Shown here: positions 3,188 to 31,148 of the stretch, piece by piece | How positions within the stretch are numbered: the first letter of the stretch is position 1 | How the letters are laid out: every line of letters begins with the position of its first letter | The notes under the pieces: model-generated | Told to the model about the DNA's origin: nothing | The model's database searches: none | The model's input: the letters and a program-made list of their open reading frames with translations, nothing else | Program-made: the position numbers and the translations under genes | Assembly (NCBI GenBank): GCA_964603475.1 | Contig: CAZRVG010000002.1 | Coordinates: forward strand, 9,923 to 73,922 | Source of the DNA: an uncultured Candidatus Saccharibacteria bacterium | GTDB taxonomy: Bacteria > Patescibacteriota > Minisyncoccia > Minisyncoccales > UBA5738 | DNA: 64,000 bases | Direction: 5' to 3'

Positions 3188-3613
3188 ATGGAAAAGATAA
3201 TAGTTGGATTTGGGGAGGTTGAAAAAATGGTTGGGGAGTTTGTTGAGGATAATAGAGAATTTTTGGAAAAGATTGATTTTGTAGTTGGGATGAGCCGGGG
3301 AGGGCTGGTGCCGGCGGCGTTGCTGGCGGCGAGGATTGATAAGCCGCTGGTTGCGGCGTATATCAACAAAAACGATGTGATATTTTTTGATCGCGCCAAA
3401 TGGATAAACGATAAAAATATTTTGGCGGTTGACGATGTTATCCGCTCGGGCAAAACGCTTTGGCTTTTGAAAAATCATTTGCAAAAATATTGCCAACCAA
3501 AAAACATTTCGTTTCTCGCGCTTTATCGGGTGAAATCATTGCAAAATGAGAATTATCGCATTCAATCGTTTGCCTGGGAAATTAACGAAGATGTTGTTTT
3601 CCCGTGGGATTAA
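3188..3613 (+). CDS. type I phosphoribosyltransferase, xanthine-guanine PRT (Gpt)-like
   Basis: GMSRGGLVPAALLAARI plus the PRPP loop ILAVDDVIRSGKT and a C-terminal ...FPWD, as in Gpt. Confidence 0.75.
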   Translation: MEKIIVGFGEVEKMVGEFVEDNREFLEKIDFVVGMSRGGLVPAALLAARIDKPLVAAYINKNDVIFFDRAKWINDKNILAVDDVIRSGKTLWLLKNHLQKYCQPKNISFLALYRVKSLQNENYRIQSFAWEINEDVVFPWD

Positions 3614-3616
3614 AAT

Positions 3617-4207
3617 ATGGTTTATAATTCCGAAATTCATCATCGGAGATCAATAAGGTATGGAAAATATGATTATTCGCGGGACGGGGCTTATTTTATC
3701 ACGGTTTGCGCGCAGAATATGAAATGCGTTTTTGGAGAAATACAAAAAGGAGAAATGAAATTGAGTGGAGCGGGGGAAATGGTTGAATATTGGTGGCGGC
3801 AATTGCCGGAAAAGTTTCAAAATATACGGCTTGACGAATTCGCGGTGATGCCAAACCATTTTCACGGTATTTTGTGGATTGTAAATCGTAAGGGAGGTCT
3901 CCCGCGTTGTAGGGGCGACCTTTATGGTCGCCCGAGTTATGATTGTTCGAACGAGAGGAGGGCGGGTACAAGACCCGCCCCTACGAAAACACTTGGCAAC
4001 ATTGTTGGCGCGTTTAAATCGTTGATGACCAATGAATATATTCGAAATGTAAAGATGGGCAAATTCCCGCCGTTTGAAAAGTCAATTTGGCAGAGAAATT
4101 ATTGGGAGCATATCGTTCGCGATGACAAAGATTTAAACCGGATTCGCGAATATATCATCAACAACCCATTGAATTGGGAGTTGGACGAATTGTACCGCGC
4201 CGTGTAG
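3617..4207 (+). CDS. REP-associated tyrosine transposase (RAYT, IS200/Y1-like) carrying an in-frame REP doublet
   Basis: HUH motif MPNHFHGILWIV and C-terminal SIWQRNYWEHIVRD...IREYIINNP. Residues ~91-125 are encoded by REP hairpins. Confidence 0.85.
   Translation: MVYNSEIHHRRSIRYGKYDYSRDGAYFITVCAQNMKCVFGEIQKGEMKLSGAGEMVEYWWRQLPEKFQNIRLDEFAVMPNHFHGILWIVNRKGGLPRCRGDLYGRPSYDCSNERRAGTRPAPTKTLGNIVGAFKSLMTNEYIRNVKMGKFPPFEKSIWQRNYWEHIVRDDKDLNRIREYIINNPLNWELDELYRAV
3909..3984. repeat. REP doublet (REPIN-like) inside the RAYT coding sequence
   Basis: gtaggggcgacctttatggtcgccc (3909-3933) and gggcgggtacaagacccgcccctac (3960-3984), with GTAG heads pointing outward. Confidence 0.85.
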
Positions 4208-4297
4208 GGGCGACCTTTATGGTCGCCCGAATTTGAGGACGGTTGAAAAATAAAATGCGGGCACCCACAAGGGGTGCCTCTACGAATGTACGGGTGG
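4204..4297. repeat. REP cluster downstream of RAYT
   Basis: gtaggggcgacctttatggtcgccc (4204-4228, identical to 3909-3933), gggcacccacaaggggtgcctctac (4249-4273), and gggtggggtgcccctac (to 4297). Confidence 0.8.
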
Positions 4298-4394
4298 GGT
4301 GCCCCTACAATACAGGGATTGAGGTGCCCTAAGAATATAGAGTGTTGCTCCTATGGGGTTCTGATGTTATGTTTAAGGCAATAATAAAAAACAT

Positions 4395-4688
4395 ATGGCA
4401 ACAAAAAAAGGGCAAAATACAAAAGAAGAAAAAACCGCAAAGTGCGGGGCAAAATGCAAGCGGGAGGAATTCAAGGTTTCGGGAGGGAAGATTTTGGAAA
4501 AAGTTAAGGAGTTAATCAAAGAGGGAAATGTGCGCCGGATAATCATTATCAACGACAAAGGAGATACGCTGATGGAAATTCCTTTAACGTTTGCGGTGGT
4601 GGGCACGGCGCTGGCGCCGGTTTTGGCGGCGGTGGGCGCGCTGGCAGCATTGATCGCCAACTGCACGATTATTGTGGAGAGAAAATAG
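4395..4688 (+). CDS. DUF4342 domain-containing protein
   Basis: KVKELIKEGNVRRIIIINDKGDTLMEIPLTFAVVGTALAPVLAAVGALAALIANCTIIVER matches the DUF4342 signature. Confidence 0.85.
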   Translation: MATKKGQNTKEEKTAKCGAKCKREEFKVSGGKILEKVKELIKEGNVRRIIIINDKGDTLMEIPLTFAVVGTALAPVLAAVGALAALIANCTIIVERK

Positions 4689-14221: not shown

Positions 14222-14286
14222 GTAGGGGCGAATGATTATTCGCCCTTTCGCGTTGAAATGCAGGCGGGTACAAGACCCGCCCCTAC
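14222..14286. repeat. REP doublet (REPIN-like)
   Basis: gtaggggcgaatgattattcgccc (14222-14245) and ggcgggtacaagacccgcccctac (14263-14286). Confidence 0.85.
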
Positions 14287-14690: not shown

Positions 14691-15314
14691 ATGATAAAAG
14701 TTAAAAAAACAAATAATAGTGGGGAGGATAACAACAAGGTTTTTAATTGCGTGATTGTGGGTACTGGCGGGCAGGGGTTGATCACTTTGCTGGAAGTCTT
14801 GGCCGACGCGGCGGATAAGCAGGGGCTGGATGTCAAAACCAGCGAATTGCACGGGTTGTCGCAAAGGGGAGGATCGGTGGAGGTGCACATTAAATTCGGC
14901 AAGCAGGTTTTTTCGCCCATGGTGGCGGCAAAAAAGGCGGATTTGATCGTGGGGCTGGAAATGCAGGAATGTTTGAAAGCCGCCTATTTTGCCAATAAAG
15001 AAACGCAATACTTAATCAGTGAAACAATTGTGCCCATTCCCGGGAAATCGCCTTTGGCAAAAGAGGAGATAGTGAAAAATTTGCAAAAATTAACCAAAAA
15101 AATAGAGGTGGTCAATGCCGCGGAAATTTGCGAAAAAGAATTGGGAAACGCGGCGGTTGCCGGAGTTTATTTGCTTTGCCGCGCGGCGTTTGAAAAAATG
15201 GTGCCGCTTGAACCCGAAATAATGCTGGAAGCGATCAAGTCATCGGTGGCGCCCAAACATCTTGAGCTGAATGTAAGGGCGTGGGAATTGGCAAAAAAAT
15301 TTGCGAAGTCGTGA
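14691..15314 (+). CDS. iorB: indolepyruvate/2-oxoacid:ferredoxin oxidoreductase, beta/gamma-type subunit
   Basis: VIVGTGGQGLITLLEVLADAA and SELHGLSQRGGSV motifs. Confidence 0.8.
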   Translation: MIKVKKTNNSGEDNNKVFNCVIVGTGGQGLITLLEVLADAADKQGLDVKTSELHGLSQRGGSVEVHIKFGKQVFSPMVAAKKADLIVGLEMQECLKAAYFANKETQYLISETIVPIPGKSPLAKEEIVKNLQKLTKKIEVVNAAEICEKELGNAAVAGVYLLCRAAFEKMVPLEPEIMLEAIKSSVAPKHLELNVRAWELAKKFAKS

Positions 15315-15319
15315 ATCTT

Positions 15320-15379
15320 GTAGGGGCGGGTCTTGTACCCGCCCTTTCCAATTCGGGCAACCACAAGGGCTGCTCCTAC
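15320..15379. repeat. REP doublet (REPIN-like)
   Basis: gtaggggcgggtcttgtacccgccc (15320-15344) and gggcaaccacaagggctgctcctac (15355-15379). Confidence 0.85.
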
Positions 15380-20635: not shown

Positions 20636-20707
20636 ACTGTGCAAAAATTGTGCAAGGTTTCACCTTGCAAGCTTGCAAGGTGAAACCTTGCACAATTTTT
20701 GCACAGT
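20636..20707. repeat. 72-bp perfect palindrome containing the CAAGGT-TTC-ACCTTG core
   Basis: Hand-checked: 20636-20671 is the exact reverse complement of 20672-20707. Confidence 0.9.
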
Positions 20708-20717
20708 TTATCAATTT

Positions 20718-21830
20718 ATGGAAGAAATATTTTTTTTGGCGATTGAAACTTCTTGCGATGATACCGCTATCGCGGTGATGCGTGCCGAAGAAGGGGGAGG
20801 CAAACTCAAAAAAATTGAGGCGGTTTCCAATATTGTTTCGTCGCAAGTCAAATTGCATGCCGAATATGGCGGAGTGTATCCTTCTTTGGCAAAGCGGGAG
20901 CATCAAAAAAATCTGCCCGTGGTTTTTGAAGACGCGGTCAAAGGTTTTGATTTGTCAAAATTAAAATTTATCGCGGTTACCCATGGCCCGGGGTTGGATC
21001 CGTGTTTGTGGACAGGGATTAATTTTGCCCAAGATTTGGCAAAAAAATATAATTTGCCGCTGGCGGGCGCCAATCATTTGGAAGCGCATTTTTTGGCGAA
21101 CCTGATAACTCTGGGAATCGGAGAAAAAGAATTTGAAAAAAATTATTTGCCGGCAATTTGCCTGGTGGTTTCGGGTGGCCACACGCTGTTATTTTTGGCA
21201 AACGCTATCGGCGGCTATCGGTTGTTGGGGCAAACCGTGGACGACGCGGCGGGCGAGTGCTTTGACAAATCCGCGCGCATTTTGGGCTTGAGCTATCCGG
21301 GCGGACCGGAAATCGCCAAACTCGCTTCTGCGCGGGTTAGACCCACGCAAACTTACAGGGGTCCAACCCCTGTCAAACTTACAGGGGTCCAACCCCTGCG
21401 GATTGAGCTTCCGCGGCCGATGATAAATCAGAAGAATTATAATTTCAGCTTTTCAGGATTGAAAACCGCGGTACTCTATGAAGTCCAAAAACGCGAACCA
21501 AAAGTTGCTCAATCCGATGAATACAAAATCGCGATGAGTTATGAAATCCAGCAGGCGATTGTTGATGTGCTGGTGAAAAAAACCGCGCGCGCGGCAAAAG
21601 AATTTGCCGGCAAGGCAATCATTATCGGCGGCGGCGTGAGCGCCAATTTGGCATTGCGCGAGGCGATGCAAAAGATGGCCGAGGAATTAGGAATTCAATT
21701 TTTGGCGCCGTCGGGGGATTTGTCAATGGATAACGCGGCGATGGCCGGAGTCGCCGGCTATTTTGCCTTTCGCCGCGGCGAAATCATCAAACCCGAAGAT
21801 CTCAAATCCCAGCCCAATTTAAGTTTGTAG
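20718..21830 (+). CDS. tsaD: tRNA N6-adenosine threonylcarbamoyltransferase
   Basis: LAIETSCDDTAIAV, GANHLEAH and SFSGLKTA motifs. ATG 20718 is preferred because the upstream ORF extension is palindrome-encoded. Confidence 0.9.
   Translation: MEEIFFLAIETSCDDTAIAVMRAEEGGGKLKKIEAVSNIVSSQVKLHAEYGGVYPSLAKREHQKNLPVVFEDAVKGFDLSKLKFIAVTHGPGLDPCLWTGINFAQDLAKKYNLPLAGANHLEAHFLANLITLGIGEKEFEKNYLPAICLVVSGGHTLLFLANAIGGYRLLGQTVDDAAGECFDKSARILGLSYPGGPEIAKLASARVRPTQTYRGPTPVKLTGVQPLRIELPRPMINQKNYNFSFSGLKTAVLYEVQKREPKVAQSDEYKIAMSYEIQQAIVDVLVKKTARAAKEFAGKAIIIGGGVSANLALREAMQKMAEELGIQFLAPSGDLSMDNAAMAGVAGYFAFRRGEIIKPEDLKSQPNLSL
21329..21399 (+). repeat. intragenic in-frame palindromic repeat block in tsaD
   Basis: tgcgcgggttagacccacgca plus two 26-nt tandem units caaacttacaggggtccaacccctg. 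Confidence 0.85.
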
Positions 21831-21850
21831 GGGCGAATGATTATTCGCCC
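21827..21850 (+). repeat. REP unit overlapping the tsaD stop codon
   Basis: gtaggggcgaatgattattcgccc. The TAG of the GTAG head is the tsaD stop (21828-21830). Confidence 0.85.
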
Positions 21851-21878
21851 CTGCAAATGCGAACGAAAACACGCGGGC

Positions 21879-24662: not shown

Positions 24663-24746
24663 TGCCGAAGGTGGGAGTTGAACCCACACGAGGTTGCCCT
24701 CACAGCATTTTGAGTGCTGCGTGTATGCCAGTTTCACCACTTCGGC
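24663..24746 (-). tRNA. tRNA-Leu (anticodon CAA), class II with long variable arm
   Basis: The reverse complement is GCCGAAG...; anticodon stem CAGCA/UGCUG, loop CUCAAAA, T-loop GGTTCAACTCC. 84 nt. Confidence 0.9.
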
Positions 24747-25128: not shown

Positions 25129-25211
25129 GTAGGGGCGGGCTTTATGCCCGCCCGTATTTATCGGGCACAATAGGGCAACTACAATAGGACAACCACAAGG
25201 GTTGCCCCTGC
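25129..25211. repeat. REP doublet/cluster
   Basis: gtaggggcgggctttatgcccgccc (25129-25153) and ggacaaccacaagggttgcccctgc (25187-25211). Confidence 0.8.
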
Positions 25212-29972: not shown

Positions 29973-30344
29973 ATGACCGATGCCAATCAAAATATTTTCG
30001 ATACACTATCTCGCGTTTATCAAATTTTGGAGTTTTCTCCGGAAATGATAAAAACGACGCTCGGTGAATTAGGTGCAATGCAACAAATCGCGATATTTAC
30101 CGAATTAGTTGGTGTGTTAACTGAAAAAGAAGCTGATGAGTTAAACGCGGCGGCGGAGAAGTCCGATGAGGAGAAAAAGGCGGTGATGGAAAAGATCGCC
30201 AAAGCGCGCGCCAATGACGAGGGTTTCAAAAACGCGGCGCGGGCGGCGGCAAAAAAGGTGATTGACGAGCATATCGCGTATTTGAAAACTCGGGGCGATG
30301 AGGCGCAAAAGGCGGAGATTGCCAAAATTTTGGGGGGGGATTGA
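29973..30344 (+). CDS. hypothetical helical protein
   Basis: 123-aa ORF with coding-like composition. No family recognised. Confidence 0.55.
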   Translation: MTDANQNIFDTLSRVYQILEFSPEMIKTTLGELGAMQQIAIFTELVGVLTEKEADELNAAAEKSDEEKKAVMEKIAKARANDEGFKNAARAAAKKVIDEHIAYLKTRGDEAQKAEIAKILGGD

Positions 30345-30367: not shown

Positions 30368-30444
30368 GTAGGGGCGGGCTTTATGCCCGCCCTTTTGGGT
30401 CAAAATGCGGATGGGACGCGGGCGGGCATAAAGCCCGCCCCTAC
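30368..30444. repeat. REP doublet (REPIN-like)
   Basis: gtaggggcgggctttatgcccgccc (30368-30392) and gggcgggcataaagcccgcccctac (30420-30444). Confidence 0.85.
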
Positions 30445-30590: not shown

Positions 30591-31148
30591 ATGTCGATTT
30601 CTTTTCAAAGCGCGGGCGAGTTTGTTTGGGAGGTGGCCAAGATTGTGATTTTGGCGTTCGCGATCGTGGTTCCGATTCGCTGGTTTTTGTTCCAGCCTTT
30701 TGTGATTCAAGGGTCGTCAATGGAGCCGAATTTTCACGAAACCGATTATTTGATTGTTGACGAGCTTTCCTATCGCTTGCGCGAGCCCGAGCGGGGAGAA
30801 GTAATTGTTTTTAAATATCCGCTGGACGCTTCCAAAAGGTTTATTAAAAGAATTATCGGCTTGCCCGGGGAAACCGTGGAAATCAAAAACGGGCAGGTGA
30901 TTATTGTCGGCACCGATGGCATTGCCAAAAATTTGGATGAATCCTATATTCCGCAAGGATCATATGCGCCGGATATGCTTGCCACCACGCTTGCCGATGA
31001 CGAATATTTTGTTTTGGGCGATAACCGTCCATATTCTTCGGATTCGCAGGATTGGGGAGAGTTGCCGCGCAAAAACATTATCGGCCGGGTGGAGTTGCGC
31101 TTGTGGCCGTTAGACAAAATCACCAGAATGGGACTGCCAACCTATTAA
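30591..31148 (+). CDS. lepB: signal peptidase I
   Basis: GSSMEPN (catalytic Ser), KRIIGLPGE (catalytic Lys) and GDNRPYSSDS motifs. Confidence 0.9.
   Translation: MSISFQSAGEFVWEVAKIVILAFAIVVPIRWFLFQPFVIQGSSMEPNFHETDYLIVDELSYRLREPERGEVIVFKYPLDASKRFIKRIIGLPGETVEIKNGQVIIVGTDGIAKNLDESYIPQGSYAPDMLATTLADDEYFVLGDNRPYSSDSQDWGELPRKNIIGRVELRLWPLDKITRMGLPTY

Follow-up and report, generated by a model that had tools for sequence, protein, structure and literature searches.

In this study, we describe a gene coding for a REP-associated tyrosine transposase (RAYT) that contains within its own open reading frame (ORF) two of the repetitive extragenic palindromes (REPs) of the surrounding DNA. The gene, which is of the TnpAREP subclass 2.4 type, is located at positions 3617–4207 on the plus strand of a 64,000-nucleotide stretch of contig CAZRVG010000002.1 from an uncultured Candidatus Saccharibacteria bacterium, referred to in its full length as the window. 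It encodes a protein of 196 amino acids and was identified from the ORF list, from matches to hidden Markov models (HMMs) and from a match of its predicted fold. We consider it likely that the gene codes for an intact, vertically inherited RAYT of this subclass, whose tolerant loop between β3 and αC exchanges sequence with the REP pool of the genome. As a phenomenon, in-gene REPs in a RAYT are not new in kind. They were described in 2018 as a hallmark of the same subfamily, with the reading frame kept and the insert modelled as a peripheral extension (Quentin, Siguier, Chandler and Fichant, 2018, BMC Genomics 19:475; PMC6006769), so that their novelty was overstated in the first-pass annotation of this DNA. 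Beyond that study, we report the turnover of the insert between syntenic orthologues, its tracking of the REPs of its own genome and counts of codon phase and slot exclusivity.

Two REP hairpins are translated as part of the RAYT

The sequence between positions 3400 and 4500 agrees with its description in the first-pass annotation, which had located REP hairpins within an intact RAYT gene, in frame and flanked by the HUH motif and the tyrosine motif, and we confirm the coordinates and sequence of this arrangement. The left hairpin (GTAGGGGCGACCTTTATGGTCGCCC, 3909–3933, plus strand) consists of a GTAG foot (3909–3912) followed by a stem whose halves GGGCGACC (3913–3920) and GGTCGCCC (3926–3933) enclose the loop TTTAT, and it is translated as C98-R99-G100-D-L-Y-G-R-P106, with the foot in the phase xGT AGG. 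The right hairpin (GGGCGGGTACAAGACCCGCCCCTAC, 3960–3984, minus strand) shows the inverted organization, with the stem halves GGGCGGGT (3960–3967) and ACCCGCCC (3973–3980) enclosing the loop ACAAG and preceding a CTAC foot (3981–3984), and it is read as R-A-G-T-R-P-A-P-T123. Separated by a spacer of 26 nt (3934–3959, plus strand), the two hairpins constitute an outward-facing doublet (3909–3984) that is encoded in frame as residues C98–T123 of an uninterrupted ORF. Both stems are perfect over 8 bp, rich in G+C and closed by 5-nt loops. The two arms are of different REP types, with GCGACC on the left and GCGGGT on the right side.

Both hairpins belong to the local REP population because each of them has an exact extragenic copy. 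The left sequence is found a single further time in the window, at 4204–4228 on the plus strand, where the TAG of its GTAG foot (4205–4207) is at the same time the stop codon of the RAYT, and the right sequence recurs on the opposite strand at 15320–15344, with a number of 0.00 copies expected from shuffled windows in either case. A second relative of the right hairpin, at 14262–14286, contains one mismatch and is identical over 14263–14286. The identities with 4204–4228 and 14263–14286 had both been noticed in the first-pass annotation and are exact, and the copy at 15320–15344 comes in addition to those listed there. As a whole, the doublet has no second copy in the 64 kb; its hairpin modules recur, and its spacer is not common to those of the other doublets, with which it cannot be aligned (alignment A2).

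The left hairpin and its copy behind the gene are part of a direct repeat of 36 nt with 92% identity (3903–3938 and 4198–4233, 295 bp apart). This repeat pair brackets the C-terminal half of the RAYT gene including its catalytic tyrosine and could give rise to deletions or gene conversion. Directly 5' of the left hairpin, positions 3888–3903 hold GTAA followed by the palindrome GGGAGGTCTCCC, which may be a decayed older REP in the loop-coding region.

When folded as single-stranded DNA, the intragenic segment is dominated by the two hairpins (–22.4 kcal/mol, z = –3.2). The same is found for the RNA fold (–43.4 kcal/mol, z = –3.4), in which the GUAG and CUAC feet are paired together. A scan for consensus terminators and promoters detected nothing at 3909–3984, nor a context that would occlude a ribosome binding site, and its only terminator-like matches are on the minus strand, at the REP that follows the gene. 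In a scan of the window against Rfam, no family was assigned to the hairpins, with two tRNAs being the only matches.

The RAYT is intact and carries the signatures of subclass 2.4

A search with the RAYT protein retrieved 1372 homologues. Among GTDB representatives, the best match is 50% identical. The window contains one copy of the gene, and the identical protein is encoded on 7 contigs of independent assemblies. The profiles Y1_Tnp from Pfam (PF01797) and REP_Tyr_transpos from NCBIfam (NF047646) both match the native protein in separate pieces, with scores of 21.9 and 63.3 bits that are below the respective cut-offs of 23 and 80. These low scores originate from the insert, which splits the domain. 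Upon deletion of residues 94–123 in silico, a single contiguous match is obtained, with a score of 26.8 bits for Pfam, which is above the cut-off, and of 75.6 bits for NCBIfam, which is still below.

To assign functional residues, we used an alignment of 37 homologues (A1), whose profile was in turn aligned to TnpAREP from E. coli (PDB: 4ER8). The HUH motif comprises the codons of H81-F82-H83 (3857–3865, plus strand) and is contained in the sequence MPNHFHGI (residues 78–85), which conforms to the signature NH[IFV]H and of which PNHFHGI aligns with PEH59MH61CI of 4ER8. Its position had been given correctly in the first-pass annotation, as had the correspondence of residues 91–125 to nucleotides 3887–3991. 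Towards the C-terminus, the stretch WQRNYWEHIVRDDKDLNRIREY179IINNP is equivalent to WQPRFWEHAIRNTKDYRHHVDY115IYINP of the E. coli enzyme. This stretch includes the WQRNYWEH motif (W158–H165, 4088–4111, plus strand) followed by R168, and with W158, Q159, E164, H165 and R168 it places the same residues at the positions of W94, Q95, E100, H101 and R104, which mediate contacts with and recognition of the GTAG in E. coli TnpAREP (PMC6006769). The first-pass annotation had regarded the YWEH sequence as the tyrosine region. This assignment has to be revised, since it is Y179 in the YIxNNP motif (Y179-IINNP, to P184, 4151–4168, plus strand) that aligns with Y115 of 4ER8 and that is thus the predicted catalytic nucleophile, whereas the tyrosine in YWEH would not be catalytic. 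H81, H83 and Y179 are invariant in A1, and the protein ends 12 residues past NNP with no tail. With an uninterrupted ORF that has kept the HUH, the WQ..EH..R and the YIINNP motifs, the gene is intact.

An AlphaFold2 model of the protein (mean pLDDT, the predicted local confidence score, of 76; pTM, the predicted template modelling score, of 0.73) finds its top match in the PDB in E. coli TnpAREP (4er8_A, Foldseek E = 8e-6), followed by the TnpA proteins of ISDra2 and IS608. In this model, residues 94–123 (3896–3985, plus strand) form the insert in the β3-αC loop, which coincides with the region of hypervariable length in A1. Located between the strand carrying the HUH motif (81–88) and a long helix (126–146), these residues are devoid of secondary structure with pLDDT values below 50, and are thus predicted to be disordered. 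The proposal of the first-pass annotation that the REPs could be tolerated as a loop is supported by this prediction.

Quentin et al. assigned the proteins of the HUH/Y1 superfamily to subclasses by their own HMM/MCL clustering, and their TnpAREP subclass 2.4 is the equivalent of group 4 in the RAYT scheme of Bertels et al. 2017 (PMC6006769). Its members have a median length of 194 amino acids and no tail domain, and they share the motifs NH[IFV]H, WQ and YIxNNP (Table 1 in PMC6006769). They also contain an insert between β3 and αC, which varies in both length and sequence, and an insertion of 8 amino acids at the end of αB (PMC6006769). The associated REPs contain a canonical 5' GT[AG]G, are located within about 1 kb of the gene and have G-C pairs at the base of their stems (PMC6006769). 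On the level of its sequence, the RAYT of the window fits every one of these signatures that we examined, with N80-H81-F82-H83, W158-Q159 and Y179-I-I-N-N-P184 in a tail-less protein of 196 residues and with GTAG REPs of GGG...CCC stems at 4204–4228 and 4260–4283, which are found on the 3' side only, the 5' side being adjoined by the upstream gene. We see no difference in kind, and the described copy is distinguished by the uncultivated genome that it comes from, which did not belong to the sample of 2018 with its predominance of Cyanobacteria and Bacteroidetes.

The loop holds REPs in most members of the family

For a comparison across the family, we surveyed 80 genomic loci from many phyla, 74 of which encode the HUH and WQ motifs in one open frame. 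In 60 of these 74 genes, the position between β3 and αC, in the following termed the slot, holds at least one GTAG hairpin. Hairpins are virtually confined to this position, with 108 in the slot, one within the N-terminal 77 codons and none in the C-terminal part. The HUH motif is separated from the WQ motif by 50 to 125 residues. A1 shows good conservation in the N- and C-terminal parts and a slot behind HFHGI whose length is anywhere between 0 and about 80 residues, with both halves of the window protein being collinear with full-length homologues. The conservation of the insert position, which the first-pass annotation had proposed to examine, is thus evident both in A1 and in the 74 genes, and it does not extend to the peptide, which is unconserved.

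The commonest pattern, observed in 36 genes, is one outward-facing pair. The slot is usually bordered by peptides resembling VGAxLVxA on one side and RAGTRPAPT or GQPQGxAPT on the other, which are the translations of hairpins of the types GTAGGGGC... and ...GCCCCTAC. Single 'double-foot' hairpins also occur, with CRGGSRTAPT and VGATRRVAPT as examples. The number of hairpins per slot varies between 0 and 4, and so do their offset, their frame and the spacer. The left foot is read as VG in 48 and as xR in 9 cases and never in the phase that creates a TAG stop (n = 57), and the CTAC of the right foot is read as PT in 32, as L in 19 and as Y in none, even though the Y phase makes no stop (n = 51); both are raw counts across related genes. 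The geometry of the REPs goes with the RAYT clade, with stems of 8 bp and loops of 5 nt in the clade containing A[FYW]KS, 8-bp stems with 6-nt loops in those containing RFK[ST] and W[FL]KT, and double-foot hairpins with 10-bp stems and 4-nt loops in others. Identical REPs, such as GTAGGGGCAACCCCCTGTGGTTGC, are found in RAYT slots of different phyla (including L002, L014, L023, L050 and L065), and the REP type thus follows the RAYT clade and not the taxonomy of the host.

Truly empty slots are rare (L045, L078, L006 and P0066) and the nearest relatives of these genes are occupied, which on the basis of this nearest-neighbour comparison, and not of an ancestral reconstruction, suggests a patchy loss. 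Some intact members contain only decayed remnants of REPs. The slots of other homologues (L046, L065, L009, L058, L050 and P0054) show tandem duplications, including four copies each of GPCAVPK and GQPHPI, three copies each of DSISAPNT and GQPREINN, and repeats of LRRAPT, which point to slippage or to a repeated partial insertion of REPs. Short repeats of the same sort are displayed in Figure S6 of Quentin et al. (PMC6006769).

The content of the slot tracks the REPs of its own genome

We compared the intragenic hairpins with those in the vicinity of the respective gene, using loci of up to 20 kb that contain flanking hairpins. For 49 of the 98 intragenic hairpins, the same locus contains an extragenic copy that differs at no more than 2 of 24 positions, compared to a median distance of 10 mismatches to the hairpins of other loci. 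Most of the unmatched hairpins come from loci where one or two hairpins flank the gene or where the flanking hairpins are not true REPs. Together with a copied doublet in one of the orthologues described below, these numbers bear out the suggestion in the first-pass annotation that the sequence of the insert would follow the REPs of each genome.

The comparison is most informative for two syntenic orthologues, P0002 (locus L083) and P0003 (locus L086), which are 70% and about 60–65% identical to the RAYT of the window. All three genomes share a neighbourhood consisting of a phosphoribosyltransferase, the RAYT and DUF4342, with LeuRS following further on (window 3188–4688; L086 9560–11037; L083). 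In the window, the phosphoribosyltransferase gene extends from 3188 to 3613 and the RAYT starts 3 nt past its stop codon, and this proximity, along with the shared synteny, suggests co-transcription and long-term vertical inheritance. Outside of the slot, the RAYT shows dN/dS ratios (nonsynonymous over synonymous substitution rates) of 0.08–0.22 at dS values of about 0.9–2 with respect to the two orthologues, which on sequence grounds places this part of the protein under purifying selection. Neither this range nor the intact catalytic motifs are compatible with a pseudogene, a possibility that had been raised at the outset.

Within the slot, each of the three orthologues contains an outward-facing doublet whose stems, offsets and left-foot phases differ. 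Its stem types are GCGACC on the left and GCGGGT on the right in the window, GCAACC and GCGGAC-like in P0002, and GCGATT and GCGAAA in P0003. In the genome of P0003, both intragenic hairpins have exact extragenic copies, and an extragenic doublet located 2 kb upstream, when reverse-complemented, can be aligned with the whole intragenic one, including its spacer and a AAATACAAAA tail. The content of the slot has been renewed far more recently than the lineages have split. In P0002, the foot of the post-gene REP is GCAG instead of GTAG and its ORF runs for 18 more codons.

Relation to known systems

Among characterized systems, the closest is the REPtron of E. coli TnpAREP (YafM; PDB: 4ER8), a member of subclass 2.2 or group 2, which likewise consists of a single gene with flanking GTAG REPs. 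The two proteins have the HUH/Y1 fold, the HUH and WQ..EH..R motifs and the catalytic tyrosine in common, at an identity of about 18%. The E. coli protein differs by a short loop of the sequence LPEGDDDFSS, where the RAYT of the window carries the 30-residue REP-encoded insert, by the long, bulged stems of its REPs and by a C-terminal extension.

The REPIN, as reportedly introduced by Bertels and Rainey in 2011, is said to consist of one REP present in two inverted copies, which are separated by a short spacer and replicate as a unit, giving rise to several copies of the whole. The first-pass annotation had used this term for the intragenic pair. It is appropriate with respect to the outward-facing, inverted arms and the 26-nt spacer, but not with respect to the arm types, which differ. 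No further copy of the whole unit is present in the window; for the orthologue at L086, an extragenic copy of the complete doublet, spacer and tail included, is found.

The insertion of palindromes into coding regions has a precedent in the REPs described by Di Nocera et al. (2013, BMC Genomics 14:522) and in the Rickettsia RPEs cited there, which are tolerated in frame and usually reside in loops or termini, as in the present case. These insertions affect scattered host genes at varying sites, whereas in the RAYT it is the cognate transposase itself that is targeted, and this in the same slot across the family. The TnpA proteins of the IS200/IS605 family (IS608, ISDra2) share with the RAYT of the window the HUH/Y1 fold and the logic of a hairpin combined with a guide tetranucleotide. 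We considered and rejected the assignment of the locus to an insertion sequence of this family, as the gene occurs once in the window, at a syntenic position that is conserved across genomes (dS about 1–2), with no neighbouring tnpB, and its hairpins are dispersed REPs instead of element ends. Apart from the study of Quentin et al., our search of the later literature found no report on in-gene REPs in RAYTs or on the function of the insert.

Discussion

In the reading that we favour, the β3-αC surface loop is occupied by a pair of GTAG-footed REPs of the genome itself, which are translated as a peptide of about 30 residues that is predicted to be disordered. The loop would serve as a permissive site that tolerates REP DNA, and its intragenic copies would be kept current by exchange with extragenic REPs. 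In such an exchange, the RAYT itself could cut and join single-stranded DNA at GTAG hairpins, reactions that have been demonstrated for the E. coli and group 3 enzymes (Corneloup et al., 2021), or gene conversion could take place between nearby copies, as exemplified by the 36-nt repeat found 295 bp downstream. By analogy with E. coli TnpAREP, for which this has been shown, the enzyme presumably binds GTAG hairpins via its conserved WQ...EH...R residues and uses Y179 for cleavage. Selection would filter solely for an open frame by removing whatever closes it, and the GTAG foot would never appear in the TAG phase because of this filter. This combination of tolerance and turnover is essentially the interpretation that was already offered in 2018.

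Several observations weigh against this interpretation. The binding and cleavage of REPs by a subclass 2.4 enzyme is presumed from homology, with the biochemistry of 2021 covering groups 2 and 3 only, and we found no assay of a group 4 enzyme in the literature. About half of the intragenic hairpins are without a close match in flanks of up to 20 kb, for which the shortness of these flanks may account. Passive tolerance alone leaves the occupancy of about 80% of the slots across phyla unexplained, and it explains neither the skew in the phase of the feet (48:9 for left feet and 32:19:0 for right feet, which cannot make a stop in any phase) nor the persistence of perfect hairpins beside saturated synonymous sites. 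Finally, the direction of copying, from the gene to the genome or the reverse, cannot be read from the sequences.

The same observations could be accounted for if the REP pair were a selected cis element, acting either as a site for self-sensing or repression, on lagging-strand DNA or on the mRNA, or as a protected, linked 'master copy' from which REPs are re-seeded. In favour of such a role are the occupancy of the slot in 60 out of 74 genes across many phyla and its near exclusivity (108 hairpins versus one elsewhere), the perfect hairpins that are identical to extragenic copies despite an orthologue dS of about 1–2, a foot-phase skew in excess of what is needed to avoid stops, a REP geometry that tracks the RAYT clade and the strong fold of the mRNA (–43 kcal/mol, z = –3.4). 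However, the intact family members with empty slots (L045, L078, L006, P0066) or decayed remnants argue that the element is dispensable, and the offset, the frame, the number of hairpins (0 to 4) and the spacer vary freely, even among syntenic orthologues. In addition, no correction for common descent was applied to the phase counts, a terminator-like or RBS-occluding context is absent at 3909–3984 and a neutral turnover combined with a filter for tolerance would equally yield all of the evidence cited in its support. We thus regard a selected cis element as rather unlikely. A similarly small chance is assigned to the related proposal that the pair is an anciently acquired and actively maintained component of subclass 2.4, serving as linked template or as self-recognition site that is homogenised with the REPs of the genome. 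If true, it would account for the occupancy of about 80%, for the relation of REP type and codon phase to the RAYT clade and for hairpins that remain perfect next to saturated synonymous sites.

Other explanations have much less in their favour. A pseudogene in decay, or a dead REPtron accumulating REPs, might be suspected from the scores below the curated cut-offs of Pfam and NCBIfam, from the REP debris directly 3' of the gene and from a stop codon that is contributed by the foot of a REP. Yet, the low scores are due to the insert and rise upon its removal, the frame is uninterrupted with all three motifs intact, the identical protein is found on 7 contigs of independent assemblies and the dN/dS of 0.08–0.22 against two syntenic orthologues largely refutes this scenario, which we consider very improbable. 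Even less probable is a chance resemblance of ordinary coding sequence to REPs or a chimeric assembly joined at a repeat, for which we can only name the general risk that assemblers make wrong joins at repeats. Each of the two distinct 25-mers recurs exactly at another site against 0.00 copies expected from shuffled sequence, among homologues it is the hairpin architecture that is conserved and not the peptide, both flanking halves of the protein are collinear with full-length homologues and the same sequence is present in independent assemblies. We conclude that a pseudogene, a chance resemblance and an assembly artefact are effectively excluded.

As an ordinary member of a described subfamily, the locus by itself is of limited consequence. 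Its remaining value lies in the question of whether in-gene hairpins affect expression, activity and the persistence of REPs, and in the comparison of three genomes. The window and its two syntenic orthologues constitute a natural experiment, with the same enzyme at the same site carrying three different sets of REPs in its slot, which could be used to study the co-evolution of REPs and RAYTs and to find out whether the exchange between intragenic and extragenic copies is driven by the enzyme. On a practical level, the insert drops proteins below the cut-offs of Pfam and NCBIfam, which therefore are widely left unannotated, and many of the 1372 homologues carry no Pfam label. Moreover, translated hairpins such as VGAxLVxA, RAGTRPAPT and GQPQGxAPT can mislead the clustering of proteins.

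Other REPs and features of the window

A hairpin scan of the 64 kb identified about 11 GTAG-footed hairpins with four or five stem sequences. Apart from the intragenic pair, all copies are located outside of genes, just 3' of them, which makes the RAYT the sole gene in the window with REPs inside. In two cases, the GTAG foot overlaps with a stop codon. There are three extragenic doublets with outward-facing arms. The one behind the RAYT gene (4204–4283) combines the copy of the left intragenic REP with a right arm of a third stem type (GAGGCACCC, 4260–4283, minus strand; hairpin scan and alignment A2). It is followed at 4295–4340 on the plus strand by two half-REP remnants in tandem, TGGGGTGCCCCTACAATACAG and TGAGGTGCCCTAAGAATATAG, which extend the REP cluster. 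Each consists of a 3' stem half, a CTAC-like foot and an AATA tail (direct repeat D2), and they resemble what several rounds of cutting and rejoining at the CTAC foot would leave behind.

In the second doublet (14222–14286), the right arm (14263–14286) is of the same type as the right intragenic REP, and the third (30368–30444), located between the ORFs 29973–30344 and 30591–31148, has two arms of the GCGGGC type. Minus-strand ORFs that extend over the latter were considered as further cases of in-frame REPs and dismissed as spurious antisense frames, and this doublet is thus intergenic. The remaining REPs are single. The exact, inverted copy of the right intragenic REP (15320–15344, plus strand) is found 6 nt past the end of the ORF 14691–15314. 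A REP of the GCGAAT type (21827–21852, plus strand) provides with its GTAG foot the stop codon of the ORF 20673–21830 (385 amino acids), and the hairpin scan located another of the GCGGGC type in an intergenic region (25129–25153, plus strand). The two tRNA genes of the window are encoded on the minus strand at 1918–1990 and 24663–24746.

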